Below are positions 1,316-60,334 of a stretch of 64,000 bases of DNA, piece after piece. How positions within the stretch are numbered: position 1 is the first letter of the stretch; each line of letters begins with the position of its first letter. The notes under the pieces were generated by a model that was not told the origin of the DNA, did not search any database, and saw only the letters and a program-made list of their open reading frames with translations. The position numbers were made by a program, and so were the translations under genes. Source of the DNA: an uncultured Acidobacteriota bacterium (GTDB lineage Bacteria > Acidobacteriota > Thermoanaerobaculia > UBA5066 > DATFVB01); assembly GCA_963813155.1 (NCBI GenBank), contig CAWEYG010000003.1:896001-960000 (forward strand). The letters are read 5' to 3'.

Positions 1316-1359
1316 GACTCCGATTGCATCAGGCGGGAACCGGCGCCGCCCGATACAAT
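1316..1359 (+). promoter_or_regulatory. Candidate operator (one good half-site) plus -10 box for a probably leaderless transcript
   Basis: GACTCCGATTGCATCA (1316-1331), 22 nt spacer, TACAAT (1354-1359), ATG at 1366. Confidence 0.45.
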
Positions 1360-1365
1360 CACGCG

Positions 1366-4300
1366 ATGAGCTTGAACCTGCGAATTCTCGGCTTCTCGTT
1401 TTCCGACCTCTACGACCCGCGGCGCCTCGCCGCGCTCGACGGCGAGTTCGTGAGCGAGCTCGAGAGCTCCGACCCGGCGCTCGCCGAGGTGCTGAAGGCT
1501 GGCCGGTCCGATCCGGACGCCCTTTCGCCGCTTCAGCTCTCCGACTTTCTCGTTCGTCTCGCCCCGCACGTTTCCCGCTTCCTGGAGAAGATCTTTCCCA
1601 TCTCCGGCGAGCTCGACGCTCTCCGAGAGCGCGCCGCCGACGAAGCGGTTCTCTCGCGATTCAAGCGCGACTTTCTCGTGCGTCGCGTCGCGAAGGCCGC
1701 CCTGCCGGATCTCGCGTCCGTCGATCCTGCAGCCGCCGGCGCCGAGCTCCGGCGCTTCGAGCGCACGCTTTTTCCCGAGCTTCCGTGGGAATCCGACGAA
1801 GAAATCGCGACCGCGCGCATGGGCATCGAGCTCCTCGAGCTCGAGAGCGCGTACGTCGAGGTGCTGAAACAGAAGAAGAAGCCCGAAGTCGCGCCGGAGC
1901 TTCGCGCGAGGTCGGCGGCCCTCGCCCGGCTCGACGGCGAACCCGCCGGGAACACGGCGGAAGCCGAGCTCGACTGGCTGGAGCGGCGCCTTCGATACCT
2001 CGAATCGGCCCTTCGCCTGAGGATGGCGCATCCGGCCTGGCGCAAAGACATCGCGAAATGGTCCTCGTTCCGGCTTCCCGAAAAGATCGTCTACGAATCG
2101 CTTGTCGAGACGGTTCGCCCCGATTCTCTGCTGAACGAACGCCGGGAAGGTCCACCCGCTCACCGCCGCCGCCGCGACGGGTTCAAGCTCACCGACAACC
2201 GGATGAATTCGAGGGAGGTCAGCGCGGAAACCCATTACTGCCTCCTCTGCCACGAGCGCGAAAAAGACTCCTGCTCGAAGGGCTTCGTCGACTCGAAGAC
2301 CGAGACTTTTCAGAAGAATCCCCTCGGGGTCTCGCTCTCCGGCTGTCCGCTCGACGAAAAGATCTCCGAAATGCACCAGCTGCGCCGGATCGGCGATTCG
2401 GTCGCGGCTCTCGCGATCATCTGCGTGGACAACCCGATGTGTCCCGGAACGGGCCACCGGATCTGCAACGACTGCATGAAGGGATGCATCTTCCAGAAGC
2501 AAACCCCCGTGAACATCCCCCAGGCCGAGACCGGCGTGCTGACGGACGTTCTCGATCTTCCGTTCGGGTTCGAGATCTACTCCCTGCTGACCCGCTGGAA
2601 CCCCCTGAACTTGCGCCGCCCGTACGCGCTCCCCTACAACGGCAAGAACGTGCTCGTCGTCGGCCTCGGGCCGGCCGGCTACACGCTCGCCCACTATCTT
2701 CTGAACGAGGGATTCGGCGTCGCGGGCGTCGATGGCCTCAAGATCGAGCCGCTGGATCCCGCCCTGCGGCCCATCGAGAGCTTCAGCGAGCTCAAAAGGG
2801 AGCTGGACGAAAGACCGCTGGGCGGATTCGGCGGAGTCTCCGAGTACGGCATCACGGTGCGCTGGGACAAGAACTTCCTGACGGTCATCCAGCTGACGCT
2901 CGTTCGCCGAAAGACGTTCCGCGCCTACGGCGGCGTCCGGTTCGGCGGAACGGTCACCGCGGAGCAGGCGTTTTCGATGGGCTTCGACCACGTCGCCATC
3001 GCCGCCGGAGCCGGACGGCCGACGATCGTCGGCATGAAGAACAACATGATTCGAGGCATCCGCCAGGCGTCCGACTTCCTCATGGCGCTGCAGCTGACGG
3101 GGGCGTTCAAGAAGAACGGCCTCGCGAACCTGCAGGCGGAGCTGCCGGCCGTCGTCATCGGCGGCGGCCTGACGGCGATCGACACGGCGACCGAGCTCCT
3201 CGCGTACTACCCGCTCGAAGCCGAGAAGACCCTCCGGCAGTACGAGGCGCTCGCGGCCGCCCGGGGAGACGAGCACCTGCGCCAGCACTTCGACGACGAA
3301 GAACGGGAGATCCTCGACCGCCTTCTCGCGCACGGCACGGCCGTGCGAAACGAGAGAGCCCGGGCCGCGGCGGCGGGAGAGACACCTGATCTCGCGAAAC
3401 TCTCCCGCGAATGGGGAGGGGTCACGATCGTCTATCGACGGACGCTCGAGGAGTCGCCCGCCTACCGGCTGAACCACGAGGAGATCATCAAGGCCCTGGA
3501 GGAGGGAATTTCTTTCGTCGAGACGCTCGATCCCCTGGAGGCGGTGCCCGACGAGTTCGGAAAGCTCCGGGCATTGCGCTTCCGGAAGCCCTCCGGCGAG
3601 GTGACGGAGTTTCCGGCGAGGAGCTGCTTCGTGGCGGCCGGGACGACGCCGAATATCACGTACGCGAAGGAACGCCCGGCCTCGATCCCGCTCGACGAAA
3701 AGAAGCGCTTCTTCGAGCCGCACCGCCTGCAGGTCCGTCCGGACGGCGGCCGCGAGCTCGTGGCCTGCCAGGCCAACGATCCGGGCGGGATCTTCACGGG
3801 ATTCCAGCGCGACGGAAAATTCACGACTTTCTTCGGCGACAACCATCCCCGCTACAACGGAAACGTCGTCAAGGCGATGGCTTCCGCGAGGGACGGGTAT
3901 CCCTGGATCGCCGGGCTGTTCGCGGGCGAACTCTCCGCGCTCGACCCCGCCGGACAGCCCGCCCGCGACGGCGCGTGGCGAGACTTTGCGAGCCTGCTCG
4001 ACGACGAATGGGTCGCCCGCGTCGTTCGAGTGGACCGGCTCACGCCGACGATCGTGGAAGTCATCGTTCGCGCGCCGGCGGCCGCCCGCGGATTCCGCCC
4101 GGGCCAGTTCTACCGGCTCCAGAACTTCGAGGCGTCTTCGCCGAAAATCGACGGCGCGCCGCTCCTCATGGAGCCGCTCGCCCTGACGGGGGCCTCGACC
4201 GACCCGAGCCGGGGGCTTCTCTCGATGATCGCGCTCGAGCTCGGCGTCTCGTCGCGGCTCTGCGCGGCCCTGAAGCCCGGCGAGCCCGTCATCGTGATGG

Positions 4301-4986: not shown

Positions 4987-5000
4987 CGCGCGAGCGAAGG

Positions 5001-9807: not shown

Positions 9808-11901
9808 ATGCCTCGCGTGACTGACCGACCGACGGGGCCTCTCGACGAAGCCCCCGGCATTGGTGCCGTCGAAAAGACGCTTTCTCCGGGCGCGATGCTC
9901 GGCTCGCGGTACAGGATCCTCTCGGTGCTCGGGTTTGGAGGAATGGGCGTCGTCTATCGGGCGCTCGACCTGACTCTCGATCTCGAGATCGCGCTCAAAC
10001 GCCTGCGGCCGGACAAGATGTCCACGGAGAAGCGCGCCGTGCTGCGGCACGAGATCATCCTCTCGCGCAAGGTGACGCACGAGAACGTCTGCCGGATCTA
10101 CGACCTCCAGGAGATCGACGGCGTCGAATACGTCTCGATGGAATACCTCGCCGGAAAGTCGTTGAAGGACATCGAGGAACACGAGGGCGTCCTCCCGCTG
10201 GGACGCGGGCTGTCGATCGCGAAGGGGATCTGCCGCGGCCTCGCGGCCGCCCACAACATCGGAGTGCTTCACCGCGACCTGAAGCCCGAGAACGTCATTG
10301 TCGACGACGCCGGCCGTCCCCGGCTGATGGATTTCGGGATCGCGATCGAACAGAACCGGACCTCCACGGAGAAATCGGGGACGGTCCCCGGTACTCCCCA
10401 GTTCCTCGCGCCGGAGCTCCTGCGGGGCGCCGCGCCCGACGCCCGCACCGACATCTACGCGCTGGGAGTCCTCCTCTTCGAAATGTTCACGGGTCGCGTT
10501 CCGTTCGACGACGGCGACACGACGAAACTGGTCCGAAAGGTTCTTCACGAGACCGCGCCCGAAATCTCCTCACTTCGCCCCGATCTGCCTCCCGAGCTCG
10601 CCTCGATCCTCCAGCGCGCGATCGCGAAGGATCCCGCCGCCCGATTCGGGTCGGCCGAGGACGTCGCTTCCGCCATCGAGGGCTACGAGGGGTCATTCCT
10701 CGACAAGGCGCTTCGCGAAGTCTCGGTGGCCCGCGCAAAGTCGGTCCGGCTGCTCGTCATGCTCGAAGCGAACAAGGCGCTGGCCGCCACCTTCGATCCG
10801 ACGGAAATCCTGCGGATCATCCTCAAGACCGCGACCGCCGAGACCGACGCGGAGCGGGGAACGATCTTTCTCGTGGAGCCGGAAACCCGCGTCCTCGTCT
10901 CGCAGATCCTCGAGGGAGGTGCGGTCAGCCCGATCCGCGTTCCCTGGGGGCAGGGAATCGCGGGAGCCTGCGCGGCCGAAGGCAAGCCGATCCTCACGAC
11001 GAACGTCGAATCCGACCCCCGGCACGACCGGGGCCCGGACTCGACCTCGGGATTCAAGACCCTGTCTCTGCTCGCGGCGCCGATGAAGACGCCGTCGGGA
11101 GAAGTCGTCGGCGTCATCGAGGTGCTCAACAAGAGGAAAAACGCGTTCTCGCGGGAGGACGAGGAGTTCCTTGGCGCGGTGGCGGAACACGCCGCCCTTG
11201 CCGTCTCGAGCTCCCGCCAACATCAGAGCGCGGTCGACGAAGCGGCGGAGACCGCGCGCGCGGAGATGTTGAGCGCTCTGCGGCCGATGCTTTCGCCGAC
11301 GCAATGGCCGGAAACGCCGGGGTTCGAGTCGGAGCCGCTGCGCTGGCGCTCCCCGACGCCCCACCTCCTCGGCTACGAGGCGGCCTACCGCGACGAGTTC
11401 CTCACTCTCGCCCTCGCCGAAGATTCCCGGCCGCTGGCCGACGGCATCTTCGATCTTCTCTCCGCGATCTCGGATCTGCGCAACCGCGGCACCGGCCCCG
11501 CGCTCGGGCCCGTGGTGGCTTCGATCGGCCAGCGCGTCGAGCGCGTCGTCGCCGCCCGGCTCGGAAAGGACGCGATCGAGCTCTACGCGTCGGGGGCAAC
11601 ACTCCCTTTCCTGTTCCGGAACGGCCGGCCCTGCCCGTTCGAATCGGAACGCGACGGCGACCTGCGCCGGGCGAGAGTGCCGCTGGCGCCGGGCGATCTC
11701 GTGCTGATCCCTTCGGAGGGACTCGTGTCGGTTCTCGGCGACCGGACCGGAGAGCTCGAGAGCCATCTCCAGAGGGCCGCAAAGCTCGCCGCGACCGGGA
11801 CGATTGCCGGCACGTTCACCGACCTCGTCGCTCGATGGAAGGCCGAGGGAAAGAGCCCGGGGACGAAGGATCTCCTTCTTCTGGGCGCCCGAAAACTCTG
11901 A
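9808..11901 (+). CDS. Ser/Thr protein kinase with GAF domain and degenerate SpoIIE/PP2C-like C-terminus
   Basis: LGFGGMGVVY, ALK, HRDLKPEN, MDFG, GTPQFLAPE; GAF with GIAG and LNKR..F..ED; tail LAPGDLVLIPSEGL...DLLLL. Confidence 0.85.
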   Translation: MPRVTDRPTGPLDEAPGIGAVEKTLSPGAMLGSRYRILSVLGFGGMGVVYRALDLTLDLEIALKRLRPDKMSTEKRAVLRHEIILSRKVTHENVCRIYDLQEIDGVEYVSMEYLAGKSLKDIEEHEGVLPLGRGLSIAKGICRGLAAAHNIGVLHRDLKPENVIVDDAGRPRLMDFGIAIEQNRTSTEKSGTVPGTPQFLAPELLRGAAPDARTDIYALGVLLFEMFTGRVPFDDGDTTKLVRKVLHETAPEISSLRPDLPPELASILQRAIAKDPAARFGSAEDVASAIEGYEGSFLDKALREVSVARAKSVRLLVMLEANKALAATFDPTEILRIILKTATAETDAERGTIFLVEPETRVLVSQILEGGAVSPIRVPWGQGIAGACAAEGKPILTTNVESDPRHDRGPDSTSGFKTLSLLAAPMKTPSGEVVGVIEVLNKRKNAFSREDEEFLGAVAEHAALAVSSSRQHQSAVDEAAETARAEMLSALRPMLSPTQWPETPGFESEPLRWRSPTPHLLGYEAAYRDEFLTLALAEDSRPLADGIFDLLSAISDLRNRGTGPALGPVVASIGQRVERVVAARLGKDAIELYASGATLPFLFRNGRPCPFESERDGDLRRARVPLAPGDLVLIPSEGLVSVLGDRTGELESHLQRAAKLAATGTIAGTFTDLVARWKAEGKSPGTKDLLLLGARKL

Positions 11902-40379: not shown

Positions 40380-40423
40380 CGATGTATTTGCATCAGGCAA
40401 GGGCAGGACGGCGTGGCTATGGT
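40380..40423 (+). promoter_or_regulatory. 7-2-7 palindromic operator plus -10 box
   Basis: CGATGTATTTGCATCA (40380-40395), 22 nt spacer, TATGGT (40418-40423). Confidence 0.6.
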
Positions 40424-44132: not shown

Positions 44133-44141
44133 GTTTCCTCC

Positions 44142-44846: not shown

Positions 44847-45628
44847 GGAAGATCCTCCTCTCGTAGCTCATCTTCCGGCGGGCCGCCGTCTTCTTCGGGG
44901 GGACCCTGCACCCCGCCGTCCTTGCGGACTCGCCAAACGTGAACCGAGACGAACAGGAGCAGCGCAACCGGAAGCACGACGCAGTGGAGGACGTAGAAGC
45001 GGAGCAGGGCGTTTTCCGACACGACGTTTCCGCCCAGCAGCAGGAAGCGAACCTTGTCGCCGATGAAAGGCGCCTGTTTCGCCATGTTCGTCCCGACCGA
45101 GACGCCCCAGAAGGCGAGCTGGTCCCACGGCAGGAGATAGCCCGTGTACGAGAGAAGAAGAGTCAGGATCAGGAGGACGACGCCGATGACCCAGTTGAAT
45201 TGGCGCGGCGGCCGATAGGCCCGGTGGTAGAAGACGCGGAGCATGTGGAGAATCGCCGCGAAGACCATCGCGTGCGCGGCCCATCGGTGGAGGTTTCTCA
45301 GGAAGAGCCCGTTGTCCACGACGTAGTGGAGCTCTTTCATGTCCTTGTAGGCCTGGGGAACGGAGGGATGATAGTAGAACATCAGCAGGACGCCCGTCGC
45401 GACGAGAATGGCCGAGCAGGCGAGCGCGATTCCCCCGAGCCAGTAGGTGTGCCGGAAGAGGAGGGTCTTTTCGCGGACCTTGACCGGATGAACGTGGAGA
45501 AACAGGTTCCCGAAGATGATGAGCGATCGGTTCAGGTTCGTGTCGGCTACGCCGTGCCGCACGATCGAGCGATAGACCGAAGTCTCGCGAATTCTGCGCC
45601 AGAGCATTTCCATCGTCGATTCCTTCAT
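44843..45628 (-). CDS. Cytochrome b6-like N-terminal subunit
   Basis: [43 protein letters not shown]. Confidence 0.92.
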
Positions 45629-46080
45629 GCTTTGAACAGCTTTCCGTGCGGAATCACGATGCTCGTGTCGACCAGGAGATTCCCCGCCGCGTCGGAAGTC
45701 ACCTCGAGCCAGGGAAGCGGACGGGGAGCGGGGCCGTGGGAGACGTTGCCCTCCAGATCGAAGCGGCTCCCGTGGCAGGGGCAGGCGATCGCTCCCTCGT
45801 CGGAAACGAATCGCGTAATGCAGCCGAGATGCGTGCAAACGGCGGAAAGGGCGTAGATCCCGCCCGGCCCCCCAATGACGTAGGCCTTCTGCTCCTTGTT
45901 GAAACGGACCGTGCCTTCCGGATAGTCGCCCGAGCCTCCCGCGCGAAACGTGGTCGGCGGTTCGAACAGGACCTTCGGCTTGAGGTAGTCGAGCGTCACC
46001 ACGCCGGAACCGAGCGCAGCCGCCGCGCAAGCGCCGACTCCGATGCGAGCGAGAAAGTCCCGCCGGCTCGACTCGTCCAT
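45625..46080 (-). CDS. Rieske [2Fe-2S] protein with Tat signal
   Basis: SRRDFL; CTHLGC; CPCHGSRF; GPAPRPL. Confidence 0.95.
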
Positions 46081-46108
46081 CTCGCGCAGATTCGGATCTC
46101 TCGCGCCG

Positions 46109-47938: not shown

Positions 47939-47949
47939 ACGATGTCCCG

Positions 47950-49299: not shown

Positions 49300-49301
49300 C
49301 T

Positions 49302-49877
49302 CTACCTCGCGATTTCAAAGTCCGCCGTCGTGGCGCCTTTCACCGTGACGGCCTTCTGGGTTCCTTTCGCTTTCGGATGCCAGACCTTGACCGTGTAAGC
49401 ACCATCGGGAACGTCGGCAATCCGGAACGAACCGTCCGCCTTTGTGACCGCAAAATACGGAGTCGGAACCGCTGCGACAAAGCCTTCCATCTCGGGATGG
49501 ACCTTGCAGAGGAGTGTGGCGACGCACTCTTTCTTGAACGTGTAGCTCTTGGTCTGCCCCTTGGGCCACGTGCCGAGATTGAACTTGTCGGCGCAGGCAT
49601 CCGGGGAGTACACGTTGTGCAGGACGGCGTCGGAATTGAGAAAATCCACGGTCGTTCCGACGAGCACTGGGACGACGTGCGGACTGAAGATCAGGTTCGC
49701 CTGGTCCATCTTCGCGTGAGCGGTCGGCGCGGGAAACGTCTTCCCCGACTCGACGGCGTAAACCACCGCGTCGGCGCTGTCGCGGGTCCCCTTCACCTTC
49801 ACTTTTCCCTGGATCTCACCCGCGAGAAGGGGTGCGCCAACGCTCAGAATCACTACTGCGATCAAATTATTCTTCAT
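49302..49877 (-). CDS. Periplasmic type-1 copper (cupredoxin) protein with carboxypeptidase-regulatory-like beta domain
   Basis: Signal peptide; F.P..V.F.NSD..HNVYS..CKVHPEM (His, Cys, His, Met); DGSFRI..VP.G.Y.V.VWH. Confidence 0.8.
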   Translation of the reverse strand: MKNNLIAVVILSVGAPLLAGEIQGKVKVKGTRDSADAVVYAVESGKTFPAPTAHAKMDQANLIFSPHVVPVLVGTTVDFLNSDAVLHNVYSPDACADKFNLGTWPKGQTKSYTFKKECVATLLCKVHPEMEGFVAAVPTPYFAVTKADGSFRIADVPDGAYTVKVWHPKAKGTQKAVTVKGATTADFEIAR

Positions 49878-49959: not shown

Positions 49960-50652
49960 TTAAACCTCACCAGGCAAGAGGATGCGTTTCTGGAACGCGA
50001 AGGCGACTGCCTCGGCCTTCGAGTGGAGCTCGAGCTTGTCGAGGATGTTCTGGATGTGGTTGCGTGCCGTCAGGTGCGAGATATGGAGCCGATCCGCGAT
50101 CTCGGGCGTTGCCCGGCCGGCCGCGAGCATGCCGAGCACTTCGACTTCACGGGCCGTGAGCTTCCGGGCACGAGCGTCGGGCGACTCCCGGACGACGGAG
50201 AGCATCGATCGCGGCGGTATGGCAGGTTCTTCCGAGTCCTTCGGCTCCCTCCGGTCGGAGAGCTGAGGTTGAAGGATATGAGCGAGATAGAAGCGATCGG
50301 GAGGCCCGGATCCGACATTGAGGATGCTCACGTCCGCGACGATGCTCGCGCCTCCCTTCGCTTGGAGAGTCAGGCCGAAATGTCGGACAGGCTCGCCGCG
50401 GAAGGCCATCTGCGTGACCGGACAGGTCTCGGCGCAGTAGCGGTTCCCGTGGACGTCGCTGCCCTCCAACATCCCGGCGCAGCTGGCCCCCAGGGCTTCC
50501 TCCTCGCTGTAACCGAAGAGGTGCTCTGCGCTGTGGTTCCAGAAAACGATCCGGTTGCGCCGGTCGGTGGCGAAAACGGGCTCGGGCGAATGCTCGAGCG
50601 CCGAGAAAAGAGCGGCGACGTCGCCCGGGAGCTGAGCGGTGCCGAACCTCAT
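49960..50652 (-). CDS. PAS-LuxR(NarL-type HTH) transcription regulator, copy 1
   Basis: IVFWN.SAE.LFGY PAS; C-X14-C-X3-CP; LTAREVEVL..IA..L.IS..T.RNH..NI..KL. Confidence 0.9.
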   Translation of the reverse strand: MRFGTAQLPGDVAALFSALEHSPEPVFATDRRNRIVFWNHSAEHLFGYSEEEALGASCAGMLEGSDVHGNRYCAETCPVTQMAFRGEPVRHFGLTLQAKGGASIVADVSILNVGSGPPDRFYLAHILQPQLSDRREPKDSEEPAIPPRSMLSVVRESPDARARKLTAREVEVLGMLAAGRATPEIADRLHISHLTARNHIQNILDKLELHSKAEAVAFAFQKRILLPGEV

Positions 50653-51038
50653 CCGATTTTCGCGTTCTTGTTCAGGATCTCCCGGCAAAATCCTTCGAGC
50701 TCCTGATTCGTGAACTCGTTCCAGCCGTCGCAGGTGTCGTGCTCGCGCAGCTGTGCGTCGCAGGAGAGCGGAACGCGGTCCACGATCTGGCGCGCGAGCT
50801 GCCACTTGTTGGCGAGGTCCTCGATCTCCTCCCGGCTCGCCTTCGGGTTCCGGCGAGTGAGCCAGTCATGACGGTCGCGGAACTCCTCGTCCGAAAGGCG
50901 GCGAAATCCCCGGCAGAAGACGCCTTTCTCGGTCGCGACCTGACACATCGAGTGTTCGTCGTCCGTCATCGCGAGCAGGGTCTCGCGCAAGCGGCGAATC
51001 GCTTCGGCGCGCGATATCGAAGTTGTGATTGGCCCCAT
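50649..51038 (-). CDS. Hypothetical Cys/His-rich protein, translationally coupled to the regulator
   Basis: HSMC..FC.GF..SCD..HDTC.GW; ATGA overlap with the PAS-LuxR gene. Confidence 0.7.
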   Translation of the reverse strand: MGPITTSISRAEAIRRLRETLLAMTDDEHSMCQVATEKGVFCRGFRRLSDEEFRDRHDWLTRRNPKASREEIEDLANKWQLARQIVDRVPLSCDAQLREHDTCDGWNEFTNQELEGFCREILNKNAKIG

Positions 51039-51079
51039 AAAAACCTCCTCGGCTCGAAGGAACGCTGTTCCCGTCTTCG

Positions 51080-51181
51080 ATGATGCGAGAGGCCTGGCAC
51101 GGGGGCATGATGTGAACTCATCAAATGTCTCCGAAACTGATGCGTTTGCAGGAGGCGCCCGCGATCGGATCGCGCGACGAT
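51080..51181. promoter_or_regulatory. Divergent promoter region with two 7-2-7 operators
   Basis: TGATGTGAACTCATCA (51108-51123; minus-strand CATCAT 22 nt away) and TGATGCGTTTGCAGGA (51138-51153; GACGAT 22 nt downstream, ATG at 51188). Confidence 0.6.
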
Positions 51182-51187
51182 CGCGTC

Positions 51188-52126
51188 ATGAACGAAGAAC
51201 CGAAAATCCGCGTATTGCTCCCCATGGTGCCGGAAGAGGCGACCGCCAACGTCGGTCGGCTCGTTCGCGCGTTTTTCCGCCCCGACCTGGCCGTGCTTCG
51301 GCCCTTCTACGCCGCGCGCCCGCTGCAGGCGGAAGTCTTCCTTCCCGAAGCGTCGGCGGCTCTGCCGGAGCTCTACCGTCTCGACCTCGAGGCAAGGCTG
51401 GCCGCCGGAGATCAGCTGAAGAAGGCGGTGGCTCCTCTGGCCGAGGCGGGCTACACGACGGAGCCGGACGTCGTCTCGGCAGCGCCGATCGAGGCGGTCA
51501 TGAACGAGATCGGGGCCTGGCGCGCCGATATGACCGTCCTCCGGACGAGCCGGGTCTCGCGGCAGGAAGGCCGAATCGGACACATGACGTCGAGCCTCGC
51601 GCGAAGCGCGAGCTGCCCCATTCTGACGTACCGCGACGTTCCCGAATCGTACCGGGTGAGAAGAGTCCTCATCGCGACGGATTTCTCGGAAAGCTCGCGG
51701 GCGAGCGCCGACTGGGGAATGGCCATGGCGGAACTGGCGCAGGCCGAAGCGCACCTGCTCTACGTCGTCGCGCGGCACGGAACGCGAAAGCTCGACTCCG
51801 CGCTCGTGCTCAGGGAAGGGACCGACGAAATCGCCCGCTGGAGGAAGCGGATAAATCCCGCGTTTCCCCGCCCGTTGACCGACGCCCACGTGATCTCGGC
51901 CGAATACCCGGCGGAGGGAATTCTGAACTTTGCGACGGATTCCGCGTTCGACCTGGTCGTTCTCGCCGGCACGGGCCGGACGGCCCTGGGCGGGATGCTC
52001 CTCGGCTCCAACGCCCGGGCAGTCGTCCGCTGGAGCGATCGCCCGGTGCTCCTTGTCCCCAATTCGAACCGTATTTCGGCAGCCTTGGTCCTCGGAAAGA
52101 TGCTCGTCGGTGTCTCGAGCCGCTGA
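51188..52126 (+). CDS. Tandem universal stress protein
   Basis: VLIATDFSESS, DLVVLAGTGRT..LLGSNA..V..PVL. Confidence 0.85.
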   Translation: MNEEPKIRVLLPMVPEEATANVGRLVRAFFRPDLAVLRPFYAARPLQAEVFLPEASAALPELYRLDLEARLAAGDQLKKAVAPLAEAGYTTEPDVVSAAPIEAVMNEIGAWRADMTVLRTSRVSRQEGRIGHMTSSLARSASCPILTYRDVPESYRVRRVLIATDFSESSRASADWGMAMAELAQAEAHLLYVVARHGTRKLDSALVLREGTDEIARWRKRINPAFPRPLTDAHVISAEYPAEGILNFATDSAFDLVVLAGTGRTALGGMLLGSNARAVVRWSDRPVLLVPNSNRISAALVLGKMLVGVSSR

Positions 52127-52131
52127 GCCCC

Positions 52132-52147
52132 TAATTCATTCGCATCA
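52132..52147 (+). promoter_or_regulatory. Degenerate 7-2-7 operator
   Basis: TAATTCATTCGCATCA upstream of the DUF4136 gene. Confidence 0.35.
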
Positions 52148-52182
52148 TGACTCCGGGCAGCACGAGCGAGGAAGATCCCATT

Positions 52183-52707
52183 ATGAGAGCTCTTCGAATC
52201 GTTTCTCGTCTGGGACTCCTGGCACTCACCCTGAACGCCTGCTCGACGCTCCGGATCGCCGTGGATTACGACAAGTCGGTCGATTTCGCGAAATACCGGA
52301 CCTACAAATGGATCGAGAACGCGCCTCCGCCGGAAAACGCATTGGTGATGAAGAGATTCCGCGCGGTGATCGAGCACCGGCTGGTCGCGAAGGGCTTCAC
52401 GAAGTCCGATCGCCCGGATCTGCTGATCGCGCTTCAGACGCATCGAGCTCTGGAAACTGTCTTTCGAACCGATGTTGAGCGCTGGGGTTACGGACCGGGA
52501 TGGTGGAGGGGAAACATCGCCTTTACGCGGCCCGAACAGATCCCCGTCGGGACCCTCGTCCTCGATCTCGTCGACGCCCGCTCCAACGAGCTGGTCTGGC
52601 GGGGAGTCGCGCGTCGCCTGATCGATCCCGAGGCGTCCTCTGAAAAAAGAGACCGCCACGCTGAAGAAACGATCGATCGGCTCCTCGAGAACTTCCCGCC
52701 GCGATGA
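52183..52707 (+). CDS. DUF4136 family lipoprotein
   Basis: LNAC lipobox, DF.KYRTY.W, GTLVLDLVDA..LVWRG, FPP end. Confidence 0.85.
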   Translation: MRALRIVSRLGLLALTLNACSTLRIAVDYDKSVDFAKYRTYKWIENAPPPENALVMKRFRAVIEHRLVAKGFTKSDRPDLLIALQTHRALETVFRTDVERWGYGPGWWRGNIAFTRPEQIPVGTLVLDLVDARSNELVWRGVARRLIDPEASSEKRDRHAEETIDRLLENFPPR

Positions 52708-53027
52708 CGGTCGCCGTTCAGCCCTCGCGATGCTCAGTCGCCTTGATGAAAGCGGATCTGAACCCGGTGCACGCCAACATCCTCCTCGCCTGCCCTGGCT
52801 GCGGTCATTCGACCGGACTCCTCACGCTCCATCCCTCCTGGCGCTGCGCCCGATGCCGGGTGCACTGGCAATTGAAAATGTGCCGGCACTGCCACCGGCA
52901 TCTCGCGATGGGAGAGGACGGCCCCTTCTGTACGGACGGGCTCCGGCGCGGGACAGGCCGCGCGGCAACGGCTTCGCCCACCGCTCACGACAAGGTGTTG
53001 CAACAAGCTAAACGCTTGCGATCTTGA
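52704..53027 (+). CDS. Possible small Cys-rich (Zn-finger) protein
   Basis: CPGC, CARC, CRHC motifs; ATGA overlap with the upstream gene. Confidence 0.35.
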   Translation: MTVAVQPSRCSVALMKADLNPVHANILLACPGCGHSTGLLTLHPSWRCARCRVHWQLKMCRHCHRHLAMGEDGPFCTDGLRRGTGRAATASPTAHDKVLQQAKRLRS

Positions 53028-53061
53028 GAAAACTCAGTTTGACCCAGAAGGAGAGTTCGTC

Positions 53062-53454
53062 ATGAAAGGTTTTGTGGAAGACATCGAGAGTCTCGCTGTC
53101 ACAAACGGTGAGTTTCGCCGGGTGCTTTACACGGCAAAGCACTGCCAGCTCGTCCTCATGTCGCTAAAACCCAAGGAAGAGATCGGGGCGGAAGTCCACC
53201 ATCTCGACCAGTTCTTTCGCGTGGAGGAAGGAAGCGGTCAGGCGATTCTCGATGGCGTTCGGACGGCGATCCGAGCGGGCTTCGCGGTCGTCGTTCCGGC
53301 CGGAGCGAATCACAACATCATCAATACCGGCAGCGTTCCGCTGAAGCTCTACACGCTCTACGCGCGCCCAAATCATCGCGACGGCGTCGTCCACCATACG
53401 CGCGACGACGCGGAAGCCGACAACGAGCACTTCGACGGCAGGACCACAGAATAG
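53062..53454 (+). CDS. Cupin domain protein
   Basis: FRRVLYT, QLVLM, EEIGAEVH..DQFFRVE.G, PAG..HN; AAGGAG RBS. Confidence 0.88.
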   Translation: MKGFVEDIESLAVTNGEFRRVLYTAKHCQLVLMSLKPKEEIGAEVHHLDQFFRVEEGSGQAILDGVRTAIRAGFAVVVPAGANHNIINTGSVPLKLYTLYARPNHRDGVVHHTRDDAEADNEHFDGRTTE

Positions 53455-53615
53455 AGAGCCAAATCGGGCGACCGCCTCCACGGCGGACCGCAGGAGGCGC
53501 AACCCACCGGGCGGCCGAGGACCGATCGATGCCCTGGGGTGTGAGACCGGCGAAGCTGTGAGAAATCGGTCGGTGGATCGCGGGCTCCCGCGAGGGGCGT
53601 CTCTTGCCGAACTCG

Positions 53616-54062
53616 TTAACGGGGAGAGCCCGATTTTCTCCGCGGTCCGCGCCCTTTCATGATCCACCTTTTCGATTTCGTGACCGGGCGCTCCGCGCCC
53701 TTACCGATCAACGTCAACAAATCGGTCGTCGTCACGATACCGACGAGCTTGCCGTTCTCAACGACCGGAAGGCTGCCGATCGATCGCCCTCGCATCAGGT
53801 TTGCGGCTTCCCGGAGCGTCGTTTCCTTTCGCGCGGTCACGACCGACGAGGTCATCACGTCGGCAACCGTCCGGTTCTTCCGATACTCGGGATCAGCGAA
53901 ACCGCCCATGTCGCGGTCGGAGAGAATCCCCACGATTTCCGAACCGCGTGTGACGACCAGATGGTGGATTCGACTCTGTGTCAGCCGGTTCCATGCCTGT
54001 TCCGCCGACATCCCGGCATCGACGGTCTCGACCTTCTTGTTCATGACCTCTTCGAGTCTCAT
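53616..54062 (-). CDS. CBS domain pair protein
   Basis: IHHLVV..GILSDRD; V.DVM; IGSLPVV..LVGIVT..DLL. Confidence 0.88.
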   Translation of the reverse strand: MRLEEVMNKKVETVDAGMSAEQAWNRLTQSRIHHLVVTRGSEIVGILSDRDMGGFADPEYRKNRTVADVMTSSVVTARKETTLREAANLMRGRSIGSLPVVENGKLVGIVTTTDLLTLIGKGAERPVTKSKRWIMKGRGPRRKSGSPR

Positions 54063-54155
54063 TCCTCGCGCTCCCTTCCGTATGGAATTCCCTGTATATT
54101 CAAAGACCTTGGAAACACATTCGGAATCGCCTTTCGAGAACAAGCGGGAGGCCCG

Positions 54156-54611
54156 GTGAGAGTCGAACAACTGATGCGAAAGCGGGTGGAAACAATCCGC
54201 GAGGACGGCTCGACCGAGGAAGCCCTGAAACGGATGCGCCTTCGCAAGCTCCGGCACCTCGTTGTCGTCCGAGAGGGTGAGGTCGTCGGGATCGTATCGG
54301 ACCGCGATCTTGCCGGCCTGCTCGTGGGAGACCTTCGACTGGACCGATCGATTTCGCAGGTCATGAGCCTTGGAGTCGCTGTCGTTGGACCGGAGACCAA
54401 GATCGAAGACGCCGCGCGTCTCATGCGTCGGCGAAAGATTGGCGCCTTGCCGGTCGTGTATGGTCGAAAACTCATCGGAATCCTCACTGCGTCTGACCTT
54501 CTTGAACTGTTGAGCCGCGTCATGACAAAGCCTCGTCAAAAACGACGCCCGCGGCATCATCCCAAGAGGTCTCGAGACTCCACAACTCGCCGCATCGCAG
54601 CGAAAAGATGA
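54156..54611 (+). CDS. CBS domain pair protein, divergent paralog of the previous gene
   Basis: LRHLVV..GIVSDRD; KIGALPVV..LIGILT..DLL. Confidence 0.8.
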   Translation: MRVEQLMRKRVETIREDGSTEEALKRMRLRKLRHLVVVREGEVVGIVSDRDLAGLLVGDLRLDRSISQVMSLGVAVVGPETKIEDAARLMRRRKIGALPVVYGRKLIGILTASDLLELLSRVMTKPRQKRRPRHHPKRSRDSTTRRIAAKR

Positions 54612-54659
54612 AAAAAGAGCGTGGCCGTCGCGGGGGCGACAGCCACGCGCCTGCCGGGC

Positions 54660-55340
54660 TCAGAAGTACGGCTCGATTCTGAGCCGATCGACGACCTGCT
54701 GCACTCCGGAAGCGTGTTGAACAGCTCCGAGAACGGCGTCCTTTTCCGGCCAGGAGTGAACCCTTCCCTCGAGGACCACCTTTCCGTCGTCGACGTCCGC
54801 GTCGATCCGATCCGCTTCGCGCTCGGCTCGGCGCTCGAGCGTGTCTTCGATCGCTTTCCGGAGCTTCACGGGATCCGCGCTCTTCCTCGCGACCGTGATG
54901 TTGTTGATCACGCCCCGAACGCCGAGAAGCCTCCGGACGGCGCTCTCGACCTCGTCGCGGTCGAAAAGAGACTCGACGCCTCCTTCGAGCGTCACCCATC
55001 CACTGGCGACGGTCGATCGGACCTTCGTGTCATCGACAAACGAGTCCCACTCGAGAGCGCGTCGGACCGCGAGAGCGATGTCCGGGTCAGTCCGAACGAG
55101 GCTCCCGGGGATCTGAACCTGGATGTCGTCGGCGACATCCAGCACGCCGCTCACCCGGTGCGCCGCCTGGCGCGCCGCGAGCTTCTTCGCGTAGCTGTCG
55201 ACGTTGCCTGTCAGGGCCACGATCCCGTTCTTGACGGACACACCGATCTCCGTTTGTTTGACTCTCGTGTCCCAACGCAACTCTGCCAGAACGTCCTGCT
55301 GAACTTGTGAATCGGTCCGAGTCATTGTCATGGTTGCCAT
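54660..55340 (-). CDS. Triple BON (OsmY-like) domain protein
   Basis: Three repeats of G.V.L.G.V..GV..V.(D/N); AAAGGAGG RBS. Confidence 0.9.
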   Translation of the reverse strand: MATMTMTRTDSQVQQDVLAELRWDTRVKQTEIGVSVKNGIVALTGNVDSYAKKLAARQAAHRVSGVLDVADDIQVQIPGSLVRTDPDIALAVRRALEWDSFVDDTKVRSTVASGWVTLEGGVESLFDRDEVESAVRRLLGVRGVINNITVARKSADPVKLRKAIEDTLERRAEREADRIDADVDDGKVVLEGRVHSWPEKDAVLGAVQHASGVQQVVDRLRIEPYF

Positions 55341-55395
55341 ATCGGCCTCCTTTCGATTACGCCGCCAGTTTTCCCCCGTGCAAACCGGCTCACAA

Positions 55396-55411
55396 TGATG
55401 CAAACGCTTCA
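55396..55411. promoter_or_regulatory. 7-2-7 operator in the BON/ABC divergent region
   Basis: TGATGCAAACGCTTCA; a second half-site TGATGCAAT lies at 55439. Confidence 0.6.
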
Positions 55412-55491
55412 ATTTCGCCATTTCGCAAATTCCACATCTGATGCAATTGGAGGATTGTTCATCGGCGGGTCGAGGCGGCATTCTCATCGTC

Positions 55492-56751
55492 ATGGAGTCG
55501 GTTCATGCCGCCAGGCCGGTCCGCGGGGCCGTTGGGGTTCACGACCTGGGGACTCTGTTCGACCTGGCTTTCCGGGCGCTTTTCCAGAACAAGATGCGAT
55601 CGGCGCTGACGATGCTCGGGATCATCATCGGCGTGGGTTGCGTCATCGCGATGATGGGGATCGGAGAAGGCGCCTCCCGATCGATTCAGTCGCAAATCAG
55701 TTCCCTGGGCTCGAATTTCATCATGCTCATGCCCGGAGCCTCGACTCAGGGGGGTGCCCGCATCTTCACGGGGCAATCGACGATTACGGAGGAGGATGCG
55801 GCGGCCATCCGGCAGGAATGTCCCTCGGTCGCCTACGTCTCCCCGACGGTTCGAGGCGCGGCGCAGCTGATCGCCGGAGAGACCAACTGGGGGACTCGCA
55901 TCCAGGGCGCCGGAGTCGAATGGCCTTACGTGCGCTCGTGGAACACCGTGAAGGGAGCGTTCTTCGCGGATTCCGACGTTCGCGCGGCGACGAAGGTCTG
56001 CGTGCTCGGGGCGACCGTCTCCGACAACCTCTTTCCGGACGCCGAGGCTGTCGAACAGATCGTTCGGATCAACCATGTTCCCTTCAAGGTCGTCGGCATC
56101 CTCGACCGGAAGGGAGCGACGATGATGGGCGACCAGGATGATGTGGTTATCGCTCCTTACACGACAGTCATGAAGCGGCTGACCGGGGCCACGAAACTCG
56201 ACATGATCTTTGTTTCCGCGGCATCGGCTAACCTCGTGGGGCAGGCGCAAAAGGAGATCGAAATCCTCCTGAGACAGCGGCATCACCTTGCGGCGGGTCA
56301 GGACTCCGATTTCACGATGCGGTCGCAGGAGGAGTTCGCACAGATGACCCAGGAATCCTCCCGGACTCTCTCGCTGCTGCTCGCGTGCTCCGCGGCGATC
56401 TCGTTGCTCGTCGGCGGCATCGGGATCATGAACATCATGCTCGTCGCCGTCAGCGAGCGGACGCACGAGATCGGTCTCCGCCGGGCTCTCGGAGCGCGCT
56501 CTCGACAGGTTCTCCTCCAGTTCCTGATCGAGGCGGTGACCCTTTCCGCGTTGGGAGGGATCGTCGGCGTCGCGCTCGGAATTGGCGCATCGCGAATCAT
56601 CGGGCGGCGGGGCGGCTTGCCGGTCGAGCTCAACGCCGCCGCAATTCTGGTGGCTTTCGGATTCTCGGCTGCCGTCGGGATTTTCTTCGGTTTCTATCCC
56701 GCCCGCAAAGCGTCGCGACTGAACCCCGTGGAAGCGCTGCGATACGAATGA
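55492..56751 (+). CDS. MacB/FtsX family ABC permease with no adjacent ATPase
   Basis: NKMRSALTMLGIIIGV, VGGIGIMNIML..V.ERT.EIG.R.ALGA, FYPARKAS.L.P.EALRYE. Confidence 0.92.
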   Translation: MESVHAARPVRGAVGVHDLGTLFDLAFRALFQNKMRSALTMLGIIIGVGCVIAMMGIGEGASRSIQSQISSLGSNFIMLMPGASTQGGARIFTGQSTITEEDAAAIRQECPSVAYVSPTVRGAAQLIAGETNWGTRIQGAGVEWPYVRSWNTVKGAFFADSDVRAATKVCVLGATVSDNLFPDAEAVEQIVRINHVPFKVVGILDRKGATMMGDQDDVVIAPYTTVMKRLTGATKLDMIFVSAASANLVGQAQKEIEILLRQRHHLAAGQDSDFTMRSQEEFAQMTQESSRTLSLLLACSAAISLLVGGIGIMNIMLVAVSERTHEIGLRRALGARSRQVLLQFLIEAVTLSALGGIVGVALGIGASRIIGRRGGLPVELNAAAILVAFGFSAAVGIFFGFYPARKASRLNPVEALRYE

Positions 56752-56812
56752 CGGACCTCGCGGTCGAAACCTTCCGCCTGAGCCCAAATTTCCGCGAAAC
56801 GGAGGAGTGCCA

Positions 56813-57581
<769 letters not shown>

Positions 57582-57642
57582 TTCGAAAATGATGAATCTG
57601 AGGGATTCCTCCAACCGCGCCCGATGAGAAAGGGTGACGTCC

Positions 57643-57795
57643 ATGAATGACGCAAAGATTCGAGTTTTGCTTCCCCTGGTGCCCGAAGCGGCGTTCGCCG
57701 ACGTCAGTCGTCTCGCTCGGGCGTCGGCCGGCCCGAACGGAGTCCCGGCGGCTTCGATCCTGGAAAAGGCTAACGCCACCGCGATGACCCATTGA
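57643..57795 (+). pseudogene. Internally deleted remnant of a USP paralog
   Basis: MNDAKIRVLLPLVPEAAFADVSRLARA aligns with MNEEPKIRVLLPMVPEEATANVGRLVRA at 51188. Confidence 0.65.
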
Positions 57796-57840
57796 GTCGA
57801 TGATCCGGTCGATGACCGGTCACCTGTTATGCTGAGCGCC

Positions 57841-58503
57841 ATGTCGTCCGCTGTCCACGAAGCGATCGATCTGCTCTCCAAGAGCGGCGAAGCCGCTTTT
57901 GCGATCGACTCCGGCGACCGGATCGTCTACTGGAACCGCGGCTGCGAGGAGCTTCTCGGCTTCGAACCGCAGAAGGTCCTGGGAAAGCACTGCTACGACG
58001 TCATGGGCGGTCGCGACGAGAACGGAAACGTCTATTGCTACCGAAACTGCCCCGTCGCCGACCAGGCGCGGAACGACCACTTGCCGGAAGTGCATCCCTT
58101 CCACCTGCTCGTCAAGGACAAGGCCGGGAAGGAAAAGCGGCTCGCCGTTTCGATGTTTTCCGTTCCGGCCGTCCGGCCGACCCTCTCCGCCGTCATTCAC
58201 GTCATCCGCGAGGAGGGATCCGCGCCTTCGCCGCTCGAGAAGAGCCTCGCGAAAGCCTCGGAGGGTATGCCCGCGCCCCGCTGGCCGTTGACGACCTCGG
58301 AAGGCCAGAAGGTCGAGCTGACCGCGCGCGAGAAGGAGATCCTTCGCTGCCTCGCGGAAGGCCTGTCGACTCCCGCGATCTCGGACCGGCTCTTCATCGC
58401 GCCAGTGACCGTTCGAAACCACGTCCAGAACCTCCTGCACAAGCTCGACGTCCACACGAAGCTCGCCGCGGTCGTCTTCGCCTACCGCAACCAGCTGATC
58501 TGA
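57841..58503 (+). CDS. PAS-LuxR(NarL-type HTH) transcription regulator, copy 2
   Basis: IVYWN PAS; C-X14-C-X3-CP; LTAREKEIL..TVRNHVQNLL.KL. Confidence 0.9.
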   Translation: MSSAVHEAIDLLSKSGEAAFAIDSGDRIVYWNRGCEELLGFEPQKVLGKHCYDVMGGRDENGNVYCYRNCPVADQARNDHLPEVHPFHLLVKDKAGKEKRLAVSMFSVPAVRPTLSAVIHVIREEGSAPSPLEKSLAKASEGMPAPRWPLTTSEGQKVELTAREKEILRCLAEGLSTPAISDRLFIAPVTVRNHVQNLLHKLDVHTKLAAVVFAYRNQLI

Positions 58504-58604
58504 CCACTGGCGAGGGCCGCCGAGCGGGTGACCGGCGGCGAATGCCTTCCGCCTGCCCGCTGGAGTGACACTGCCTCCTCTCGCTGCGAGATATTCTCGG
58601 CTCG

Positions 58605-60293
58605 GTGAATCCGACTCCCGGCCCAACGCCGGCATTTCTGCCGAAATCGTTCGTCGCCCTCCGGGGCTACTCGCGCCGTCAATTCCTGGCCGACCTTCAG
58701 GCGGGACTCGTCGTCGGCATCGTCGCGATCCCCCTCGCGCTCGCGTTCGCGATCGCTTCCGGAGTCTCCCCGGAGAAAGGTCTCGTCACGGCCGTCGTCG
58801 CCGGCTTCCTGATCTCGCTCCTCGGCGGAAGCCGGGTTCAGATCGGAGGCCCCACCGGAGCGTTCGTGGTGATCGTCTACGGCATCGTCCAGAAATACGG
58901 CGTGGACGGGCTCGCCGTCTGCACTCTCCTTGCGGGCATTCTGCTCGTCGCGATGGGGTTCGCCCGGTTCGGCGGGGCAATCAAGTTCATTCCCTATCCG
59001 GTCGTCACCGGATTCACGAGCGGCATCGCCGTCATCATTTTTTCTTCGGAAGTGAAGGACCTGTTCGGCCTCCGGATGGGGGCCGTTCCCTCGCCGTTTC
59101 TCGAGAAGTGGGCGGCATTCGGCAAGGCGTTCGCCTCGTTCTCCCCCGCCGCCGTAGGCGTTTCCACGGGATCGCTCGCGATCCTGATCTTCTGGCCGCG
59201 GATTTCGAAGAAGATTCCGGGACCGATCGTCGCGATTCTCGCCGCGACGGCCGCCGTCGCCGTATTCAAGATCCCGGTCGAGACGATCGGGTCGCGGTTC
59301 GGGGGGTTCCACGCGTCGATCCCGGCGCCGCGCTTTCCGCCCCTGAGCCTCTCGCGGGTGCGGGAGCTGTTTTCTCCCGCGGTGACCGTCGCCCTCCTCG
59401 CGGGGATCGAGTCGCTTCTCTCGGCCGTCGTCGCCGACGGCATGATCGGCAGCCGCCACAAGTCGAACCTGGAGCTCGTCGCGCAGGGCGTCGGGAACAT
59501 CGCGTCGTCGCTTTTCGGCGGCATACCGGCCGCGGGCGCAATCGCCCGCACCGCGACGAACGTCAAGAACGGGGGACGCACTCCCGTCGCCGGCATGATT
59601 CATTCGGCCACCCTGCTGTTCGTGCTTCTCCTCTTCGGCCGGTGGGCCAGTCTCATTCCGCTCGCGACGCTCGCCGCGGTCCTCGCGGTTGTCGCCTACC
59701 ACATGAGCGAATGGCGGTCCTTCGCGACTCTCCTGCGGACGCCGCGAAGCGATGTCCTGGTCCTGTTGACCACGTTCCTCCTGACCGTGCTCGTCGACCT
59801 CTCGGTCGCCGTGCAGGTGGGGGTCGTTCTCGCCGCCTTCCTTTTCATGAAGCGGATGGCCGACGTCACCAACGTCGGGGCGATTACCCGCGAGTTCGAG
59901 GAGTCGCCCGACGGCATGATGTCGGCGGACCCGGGCGGCGTCGCCCGGCGCACGATTCCCCCGGGAGTCGAGGTTTACGAGATCAACGGCCCTTTCTTCT
60001 TCGGAGCCGCCGACAAAATCAAAGACGTGCTCCAGTTCGTGGCAAAGAAACCGAAGGTCTTCATCCTCCGGCTGAGGAACGTTCCCGCCATCGACGCAAC
60101 CGGGATCCACGTGCTCGACGACCTGCATGAGAGCTTCGTGCGAAAGGGGATCGTGTTCCTGATCGCCGGCCTCCAGGCCCAGCCCTTCGCCGCGCTCGAC
60201 CGCGCGGGCCGGCTCGACCGGTACGGCCGCGAGAACCTCGCAGGCGACCTCGACGAAGCTCTTGAAAAGGCCAGGGCTTCCACCGCGAAATGA
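58605..60293 (+). CDS. SulP/SLC26 anion transporter with STAS domain
   Basis: AGLVVGIVAIPLALAFAIASG, QIGGPTGAF, ESLLSA, IARTATN, GPFFFGAA, IDATG. Confidence 0.93.
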   Translation: MNPTPGPTPAFLPKSFVALRGYSRRQFLADLQAGLVVGIVAIPLALAFAIASGVSPEKGLVTAVVAGFLISLLGGSRVQIGGPTGAFVVIVYGIVQKYGVDGLAVCTLLAGILLVAMGFARFGGAIKFIPYPVVTGFTSGIAVIIFSSEVKDLFGLRMGAVPSPFLEKWAAFGKAFASFSPAAVGVSTGSLAILIFWPRISKKIPGPIVAILAATAAVAVFKIPVETIGSRFGGFHASIPAPRFPPLSLSRVRELFSPAVTVALLAGIESLLSAVVADGMIGSRHKSNLELVAQGVGNIASSLFGGIPAAGAIARTATNVKNGGRTPVAGMIHSATLLFVLLLFGRWASLIPLATLAAVLAVVAYHMSEWRSFATLLRTPRSDVLVLLTTFLLTVLVDLSVAVQVGVVLAAFLFMKRMADVTNVGAITREFEESPDGMMSADPGGVARRTIPPGVEVYEINGPFFFGAADKIKDVLQFVAKKPKVFILRLRNVPAIDATGIHVLDDLHESFVRKGIVFLIAGLQAQPFAALDRAGRLDRYGRENLAGDLDEALEKARASTAK

Positions 60294-60334
60294 ATCGTTT
60301 GCATCAGGGCGCGCTATGAGAGAATTGCCACAAT
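60291..60334 (+). promoter_or_regulatory. 7-2-7 operator plus -10 box upstream of the cytochrome genes
   Basis: TGAATCGTTTGCATCA (60291-60306), 22 nt spacer, CACAAT (60329-60334). Confidence 0.6.

Follow-up and report, generated by a model that had tools for sequence, protein, structure and literature searches.

Which protein reads a 16-bp palindrome that recurs at a fixed distance from predicted promoters in an uncultured bacterium? The question is raised by a stretch of 64,000 nucleotides (nt) of DNA, here called the window (contig CAWEYG010000003.1, or C3; C3:896001-960000; 61-70% G+C), from a member of the Acidobacteriota (class Thermoanaerobaculia; assembly GCA_963813155.1, 3.81 Mb in 23 contigs, 90.8% complete). 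The palindrome can be written as TGATGCR-NN-YGCATCA (TGATGCRNNYGCATCA, the search pattern used throughout), a dyad of two 7-bp half-sites around a 2-bp spacer (7-2-7). An initial annotation of the window proposed that it defines a regulon, and that it is the operator of two local proteins, P0001 and P0002, which join a PAS domain to a LuxR-type helix-turn-helix (HTH). The evidence presented here suggests that the palindrome is probably the operator of a one-component PAS-LuxR family of Acidobacteriota, represented in this genome chiefly by P0002, and that it would serve class-II activation of a stress- or dormancy-type set of genes.

The window contains no perfect match to TGATGCRNNYGCATCA. 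Six places match it with one or two mismatches each, namely 40380, 51108, 51138, 52132, 55396 and 60291, precisely those given by the initial annotation. In 100 shuffles of the window, the number of matches with up to two mismatches averaged 0.46, with a maximum of 4, and none of the shuffles reached six. A weight matrix built exclusively from the sites of other genomes gives these six sites scores of 13.1-21.7. Three partial sites had also been put forward; those at 1316 and 55439 are retained as half-sites, whereas the one at 57590..57605 (plus strand), with a matrix score of 0.0, is no site. A repeat search of 50900-61000 recovered only the motif (family D4), and a scan of the whole window with Rfam gave no family at the gathering score.

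As had been claimed, all sites lie between genes or at the edge of one, provided that the starts of two genes are moved to the ATG codons at 1366 (a gene for a protein of 1225 amino acids, aa) and 51188 (a gene for a universal stress protein, Usp). The second revision makes site 51138 intergenic; a start placed too early had initially made it 'coding'. Both intergenic status and start codons were judged by crude calls based on codon usage. By this measure, 10 of the 22 matches with up to two mismatches in the whole genome are intergenic, and six of these 10 fall within the window; a further intergenic match, C3:962599, lies 2.6 kb past its end. The overall count of 10 is unremarkable beside 150 control palindromes obtained by permutation of the half-site (mean 5.4, largest 35), but the local clustering stands out, with six intergenic matches within 30 kb as against at most four in any of the 150 controls. 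Ranking of the genome by the matrix gives a similar result: the top seven matches are all on C3, six of them within 27 kb (936-963 kb). The regulon in this genome would be small and partly degenerate, with about 8-10 promoters.

Other Acidobacteriota extend this picture. In 41 genomes of the same order, 549 sites with at most one mismatch were found (0-39 per genome), compared with 40 for a control in which the pattern is read backwards. A second set was assembled by scanning one genome per species with an alignment of PAS-LuxR proteins, and comprises 79 PAS-LuxR loci or 838.5 kb. These loci hold 120 sites versus 0 for the reversed pattern at up to one mismatch, and 194 versus 6 at up to two. 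Site density is about 1 per 7 kb around PAS-LuxR genes and about 1 per 300 kb genome-wide in the relatives, a difference of about 40-fold. Since 114 of the 120 sites lie outside called genes and just 6 within them, despite about 87% of that DNA being called coding, the motif is a conserved intergenic signal throughout the lineage. Its column consensus in the relatives is TGATGCR-WW-YGCATCA. The reversed-pattern control is misleading in two low-GC genomes (G095 and G142; loci L142-L157, 34-48% G+C), because base composition there differs so much; they give 23 and 12 matches versus 0 reversed, and the 16 matches examined lie in AT-rich, coding-looking DNA. Co-occurrence of motif count and PAS-LuxR genes across the phylum was unusable as a measure, only 19 of 30-80 candidates per genome having been scored.

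The position of the sites relative to promoters was derived from 132 site-gene pairs in other genomes, in which a gene start 20-150 nt away sets the orientation. A hexamer of the form nAnnnT starts at +22 in 49 of these pairs and at +23 in 34 (83/132 together); every other offset from 0 to 49 is represented by at most 18 pairs. Column counts at the hexamer read T-A-x-x-x-T. If this hexamer is the -10 element, the site would cover roughly -50 to -35 and be centred on -42.5 or -43.5, in agreement with the initial annotation. The claim of a spacing of exactly 22 nt holds at 1316, 40380, 51138 and 60291, and at 51108 on the minus strand only, not the plus strand. Site 52132 has an offset of 23, as does 55396 towards the minus strand; towards the plus strand, 55396 has no nAnnnT hexamer at the expected offset. 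After the site, no conserved -35-like hexamer is present in the 132 oriented pairs.

Two candidate readings of the element as part of the promoter itself were rejected. A sigma-54 promoter was dismissed by eye, the GG/GC spacing being unlike the TTGCA within the site. The second reading, an atypical -35 element recognised by a sigma factor, is at odds with the conservation of the two half-sites as a dyad in relatives, and with the 24 nt that would separate TTGCAT from the -10 element.

Three promoters in the window, those at 1316, 51138 and 52132, share a further property: the ATG (at 1366, 51188 and 52183, respectively) follows the -10-like hexamer by 6 nt, which suggests that several target transcripts may be leaderless in this lineage. 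In the relatives, the predicted start codon lies 34-37 nt after the site in 18 of 156 pairs. A search for sequencing runs that cover 50800-60700 of the window gave none with RNA. The start codon at C1:638275, on another contig of this genome, likewise stands 6 nt after a -10-like hexamer.

In principle, a site in this position could mediate repression as well as activation. Some LuxR-type proteins repress, and the palindrome ends at about -35, overlapping the usual position of the -35 hexamer, so that a PAS-LuxR protein might occlude this region until a signal releases it. Promoters that have no conserved -35-like hexamer should, however, be weak unaided, and strict phasing at +22/+23 is characteristic of activators in contact with RNA polymerase. 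Moreover, regulators of the PimM type, PAS-LuxR proteins whose sites are at -35, act as activators according to the accessible part of the literature on them (PMC9774167). Repression is therefore considered quite improbable.

The same layout also brings to mind the CRP/FNR family, if the site is read as TGATG-N6-CATCA. A length of 16 bp, dyad symmetry and a centre near -41.5 to -42.5 make up the classic class-II arrangement of CRP/FNR, Usp genes are targets of FNR/Anr in other bacteria, and the window encodes a 469-aa protein with two domains that bind cyclic nucleotide monophosphates (19682-21091). Against this, the Pfam scan finds no HTH in the 469-aa protein. Nor does the genome offer another candidate: PF00325 has no match in it, and the best match to PF13545, at 22.6 bits (cut-off 27), is an Lrp/AsnC-like protein, whereas searches with PF13545 and PF00325 succeed in 14/14 and 11/14 control genomes, respectively. 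The initial annotation had held that the motif does not match FNR or CRP consensus sequences, and direct reading agrees, the half-site being unlike both TTGAT and TGTGA. Positions 6-7 and 10-11 are also conserved, so that 7-2-7 fits better than 5-6-5. With an assembly that is 90.8% complete, a CRP/FNR gene could be missing from it; even with this point counted in its favour, a regulator of this family is very improbable.

What, then, singles out the PAS-LuxR proteins? A 7-2-7 dyad of 16 bp would be a suitable target for two LuxR-type HTH domains in a dimer. Both P0001 and P0002 have an N-terminal PAS domain and a C-terminal LuxR HTH without a receiver (REC) domain, and hence a PimM-type PAS-LuxR architecture. 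The GerE-type HTH (PF00196) scores 61.2 bits in P0001 and 61.6 bits in P0002 against a cut-off of 23.5; for P0001, expect values (E) are 7.4e-17 for GerE and 2.7e-11 for PAS. A profile search of the PDB matches VraR, LiaR-like, NarL, GerE and DevR chains, DevR with E about 1e-10. The AlphaFold model (mean predicted local distance difference test, pLDDT, 75.2) has a PAS fold and, after it, an HTH of four helices. Its best fold matches are VqmA (6ide, E 3.6e-9), 3clo and EL222 (8a5r/3p7n), each of them a one-component protein with PAS and a LuxR-type HTH, with template-modelling scores of 0.32-0.40 and 14-19% identity. In an alignment of 18 acidobacterial PAS-LuxR proteins, T194, R196, N197 and H198 of the recognition helix are invariant, as are C55, C70, C74 and H124 of the PAS domain (18/18). 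The latter four are placed by the predicted structure in the E/F-alpha helix region and the last beta-strand. No NCBIfam equivalog fits proteins of the P0001/P0002 type, and the Atlas clusters nearest P0002 are labelled hypothetical or generic.

The connection between protein and palindrome is made by their co-location. Over the 79 loci, sites are densest at the PAS-LuxR gene and become sparser with distance. Their density also depends on the clade: a site is found within 1.5 kb at 51 of 61 P0002-like loci and at 7/7 loci of the Vicinamibacteria type, and at 0/10 loci of a clade with a 'GYAALN' HTH. At several loci (L016-L018, L029, L113-L119), sites are situated 50-100 nt upstream of the PAS-LuxR gene. 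Across the 41 relatives, which as kin are not independent, the number of P0001 matches per genome, a few of them HTH-only, correlates with the number of sites (Spearman 0.79), and one genome (G026) has neither regulator nor sites.

This association is complicated by several observations that weigh against it. P0001-like orthologues in relatives have a site within 1.5 kb in 0/14 cases. Ten of the 61 P0002-type loci are without a nearby site, including the closest relative, L061, the protein of which is 91% identical to P0002. One genome, G008, has five matches and no PAS-LuxR gene, although the one match examined lies in coding-looking DNA. In the genome studied here, only two sites have at most one mismatch, and several distal half-sites are degenerate. 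Finally, a site is located upstream of 18/79 PAS-LuxR genes versus 187/759 other genes in the same loci, and because of these proportions the argument rests on clustering at the level of the gene island, not on strict autoregulation. PAS-LuxR genes could in principle be mere members of the regulon of another factor, from which the same co-location would arise.

Such a factor would be a different dimeric regulator, and the candidates are three LuxR-type response regulators with a REC domain (REC-LuxR) or a protein missing from the incomplete assembly. The genome encodes five GerE-type proteins in total, of which two are P0001 and P0002 and the other three are of the REC type, and known Usp-rich hypoxia regulons are run by REC-LuxR regulators such as DevR and OsdR, according to the accessible text of PMC5069765. 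The lack of an excess of sites upstream of PAS-LuxR genes over their neighbours, and the site-free P0002-type loci, would also be understandable on this basis. On the other hand, sites are concentrated around the PAS-LuxR gene in a clade-dependent manner, no REC-LuxR gene is present among 94 scanned open reading frames (ORFs) next to sites, and G026 is without both PAS-LuxR genes and sites. In addition, the residues T194/R196/N197/H198, invariant in the PAS-LuxR family, are different in the three REC-type proteins. Overall, another dimeric regulator is unlikely. The proposal that the local PAS-LuxR proteins bind the motif is probably right for the P0002 type, given its clade-dependent co-location with sites; its extension to both proteins goes beyond the data, given the 0/14 for P0001-type loci.

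If PAS-LuxR proteins of the P0002 type are the binders, a dimer would likely contact the two TGATGC half-sites, and the occupied site would likely stand in for the -35 element, with RNA polymerase being activated by the class-II route. P0001 may share the operator, because its recognition helix is nearly the same as that of P0002, and through site 51108 it might itself be under the control of the same operator system. What the PAS domain senses is a matter of speculation. By analogy with EL222 and FG214, the Cys3-His set, located in the usual cofactor pocket of PAS domains, might hold a cofactor, either a metal or a redox group, on which DNA binding depends; a metal or iron-sulfur (Fe-S) centre could then report the oxygen or redox state and release the HTH. 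It counts against this cofactor part that the Cys-bearing stretch is the lowest-confidence part of the PAS model (pLDDT 56-67).

The genes next to sites provide an indication of what is regulated. In the 79 loci, 130 ORFs start no more than 200 nt from a site, and 94 of these were scanned with Pfam; the other 36 were dropped by hand (queried PAS-LuxR genes and apparent positional repeats), and proportions are therefore approximate. Usp is found in 22 of the 94, followed by DUF5335 and further GerE or PAS-LuxR proteins (6 each), BON (4), and, with 3 each, CBS, ADP-forming acyl-CoA synthetase fused to GNAT, enoyl-CoA hydratase, Pyridox_ox_2 and MtrC-like multihaem cytochromes. Pyruvate:ferredoxin oxidoreductase (PFOR), PTP-like phosphatase and a small MerR-like HTH protein occur twice each. 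Single cases are ferritin, OsmC, hemerythrin, HSP20, Ribosomal_S30AE (a hibernation factor), PfkB, a P-type ATPase, zinc alcohol dehydrogenase, GGDEF, NTP-transferase, DUF6335 and DUF2238; 27 ORFs have no family. Such a set would fit a response to low oxygen, to energy limitation or to dormancy. Beyond the window, the best matrix match of this genome (C3:962599) precedes a gene for a multihaem MtrC-like cytochrome, and the match at C1:638224 precedes ccmE. The CcmE-like haem chaperone encoded after the latter (C1:638275-638667) carries the sequence CPSKY in place of the usual haem-binding His motif; this Cys variant occurs in some anaerobes and archaea.

Taken further, and only tentatively, Acidobacteriota may run a dormancy-type regulon by means of redox or oxygen sensors that each consist of one protein, with a Cys3-His metal or Fe-S centre in the PAS domain; the regulon would closely mirror DosRST and yet have an independent origin. 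Usp, BON, CBS, HSP20, hibernation factor, PFOR and cytochromes for extracellular electron transfer would be its members, paralogues would share the operator, and many of its promoters would be without a -35 element and leaderless.

Table 1. Predicted sites, promoter hexamers and genes in the window, in order of position; offset is the distance in nt from site to hexamer.
Feature	Position	Strand	Details
Weak half-site GACTCCGATTGCATCA	1316..1331	+	Promoter-proximal half alone intact; matrix 5.9; TACAAT 1354-1359, offset 22; ATG 1366, leaderless geometry; gene for 1225-aa Pyr_redox_2 protein (Pfam)
Site CGATGTATTTGCATCA	40380..40395	+	Matrix 19.5; TATGGT 40418-40423, offset 22
Radical SAM gene	40443-41702		Downstream of 40380 site; NCBIfam NF045502, E 4.5e-48
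Respiratory gene cluster	41683-49877	-	Directly downstream of P0001
PAS-LuxR P0001, 230 aa	49960-50652	-	Second gene, after 106-aa ORF
106-aa ORF, no family	50649-50969	-	First gene of P0001 operon
Site TGATGTGAACTCATCA	51108..51123	-	Matrix 19.0; faces 106-aa ORF/P0001 operon; CATCAT 51080-51085 (minus strand), offset 22
Site TGATGCGTTTGCAGGA	51138..51153	+	Matrix 13.1; Usp promoter; GACGAT 51176-51181, offset 22; ATG 51188, leaderless geometry
Tandem-Usp gene	51188-52126	+	Usp E 1.1e-27
Site TAATTCATTCGCATCA	52132..52147	+	Matrix 21.7; GAAGAT 52171-52176, offset 23; ATG 52183
DUF4136 gene	52183-52707	+	Downstream of 52132 site
Cupin gene	Between DUF4136 and CBS genes		Family scan
CBS-pair gene, about 150 aa	53616-54062	-	Divergent from next
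CBS-pair gene, about 150 aa	54156-54611	+	Divergent from previous
BON-domain gene	54660-55340	-	BON E 5.6e-35; start revised to ATG at 55340 behind AGGAGG
Site TGAAGCGTTTGCATCA (minus-strand reading)	55396..55411	-	Fewest mismatches in window (1); matrix 20.7; AAAACT 55367-55372, offset 23
Half-site TGATGCAATTGGAGGA	55439..55454	+	Distal half alone intact; matrix 11.3; CATTCT only at offset 24; weak candidate
MacB-like permease gene	55492-56751	+	Downstream of 55439 half-site
Short-chain dehydrogenase/reductase (SDR) gene	Between MacB-like permease gene and Usp remnant
50-aa ORF, Usp N-terminus remnant	57643-57795	+	Matches N-terminus of Usp at 51188
PAS-LuxR P0002, 224 aa	57829-58503	+
SulP gene	Between P0002 and 60351 operon		End overlapped by 60291 site
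Site TGAATCGTTTGCATCA	60291..60306	+	Matrix 19.3; CACAAT 60329-60334, offset 22
Operon after 60291 site	60351-60647; 60644-61285; 61282-61491		No family (first gene); weak cytochrome c matches (second gene)

The sites at 51108 and 51138, with their centres 30 bp apart, appear to serve divergent promoters, one for the P0001 operon and one for the Usp gene. The respiratory gene cluster may be co-transcribed with the P0001 operon, which would place it under the control of the 51108 site as well. It encodes a CarboxypepD_reg-like protein, a 449-aa ORF without family, a GltD-like oxidoreductase with flavin adenine dinucleotide and Fe-S, a Rieske protein, a split cytochrome b (N- and C-terminal parts), a 667-aa multi-cytochrome c and a 149-aa cytochrome c. 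The region 53616-54611 had first looked like a single long CBS ORF open on both strands. In the 93-bp spacer between the two CBS genes (54063-54155), no PAS-LuxR site was found; it contains the palindrome GGAATTCC. Elsewhere in the window there are two genes for Ser/Thr protein kinases, one of them fused to GAF (9817-11901 and 23738-25153).

Comparison with relatives gives some insight into the history of this region. A common layout in the relatives is site, Usp, PAS-LuxR, site, and in a genome of the same genus (G001) the Usp gene, the P0002 orthologue, SulP and a small ORF are contiguous. In the present genome, about 5.7 kb separates Usp from P0002, with the DUF4136, cupin, CBS, BON, MacB and SDR genes in between. 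The Usp remnant at 57643-57795 looks like a trace of a rearrangement that split an ancestral Usp/PAS-LuxR pair, and the rejected place at 57590 resembles a decayed copy of the promoter at 51138. The 60291 site is kept in G001 and G002 (the latter, like G008, an unpublished genome), with the proximal half intact and a hexamer at +22. A stretch of about 55 bp in the gap between P0002 and SulP (58511-58568) has at least eight other matching places in G001, at about 85-92% identity, and is probably a small dispersed repeat.

Acidobacteriota, most of them uncultured, rank among the most abundant bacteria of soils and sediments, and we know of almost no transcription-factor regulons described for them. 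There is precedent for PAS-LuxR regulators that have a 16-bp operator at -35. A full-text search of a library that lacks most subscription journals found no description of this operator, of the Cys3-His subfamily, of the spread in Acidobacteriota or of a regulon centred on Usp. Across Thermoanaerobaculia, Holophagales and Vicinamibacteria, the motif could be read directly from sequence as a marker of a response to stress or low oxygen. It also names a candidate sensor family with an unusual Cys3-His PAS domain, and would provide a second, independent Usp-centred dormancy regulon to set beside that of DosR. Promoters and regulator together are potential parts for redox-responsive expression.

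Among known systems, the PAS-LuxR regulators of Streptomyces (PimM, PteF, CfaR) are the closest in architecture: they share the PAS domain and the LuxR/GerE HTH, are about 200-230 aa in length and work as one-component regulators. In the accessible part of PMC9774167, they bind a 16-bp palindrome in the -35 region with the consensus CTVGGGAWWTCCCBAG. The layout, a 7-2-7 palindrome-like site in the -35 region, is similar, with binding and activation in the acidobacterial case being predicted. As far as that source goes, however, the operator sequence is unrelated to TGATGCR-NN-YGCATCA, and the PimM consensus is not matched here. The Streptomyces proteins are encoded in secondary-metabolite clusters, the acidobacterial ones in stress and respiration islands. 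The invariant Cys3-His set of the acidobacterial PAS domain is possibly a further difference.

LuxR-family HTH dimers on inverted repeats are equally the theme of the NarL 7-2-7 sites and of the lux boxes of LuxR/TraR. Lux-type boxes are centred near -42.5, and their regulators are class-II activators. The half-sites of NarL, LuxR and TraR are different, lux boxes are 18-20 bp long, and REC or autoinducer-binding domains take the place of PAS.

VqmA, EL222 (LOV-HTH) and FG214 (HTH-PAS) illustrate how a signal received by the PAS domain can set a LuxR-type HTH free for dimerisation on an inverted repeat. EL222 releases its HTH with light. FG214 acts on haem reduction and prefers inverted repeats with a 2-bp spacer, according to the available text of PMC13060918; its domain order is opposite to that of P0002. 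The cofactors of EL222, VqmA and FG214 are flavin, 3,5-dimethylpyrazin-2-ol (DPO) and haem b, respectively, and none of the three proteins has the Cys3-His set. The likeness to Fe-S or metal PAS sensors of the NreB-like kind consists in the four invariant residues C55/C70/C74/H124, for which cofactor binding is putative.

For gene content, the best parallel is DosR/DevR (OsdR) of Actinobacteria, which shares the LuxR/NarL-type HTH and a palindromic operator upstream of many Usp genes. Within the DosR set, the product of hspX is an alpha-crystallin, that of hrp1 belongs to the CBS proteins and that of Rv0079 is similar to a hibernation factor. For the DosR-related set of Mycobacterium tuberculosis, the accessible part of PMC7753917 gives seven Usp genes along with pfkB, hrp1 and ctpF, which encodes a P-type ATPase. 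The two systems differ in phylum and in box sequence, and also in how the signal arrives: DosR is a response regulator fed by the kinases DosS and DosT, whereas P0001 and P0002 have a fused PAS sensor and no receiver. The overlap in gene content, which is at the family level only, extends to Usp, HSP20, CBS, PfkB, P-type ATPase and a hibernation-factor-like protein.

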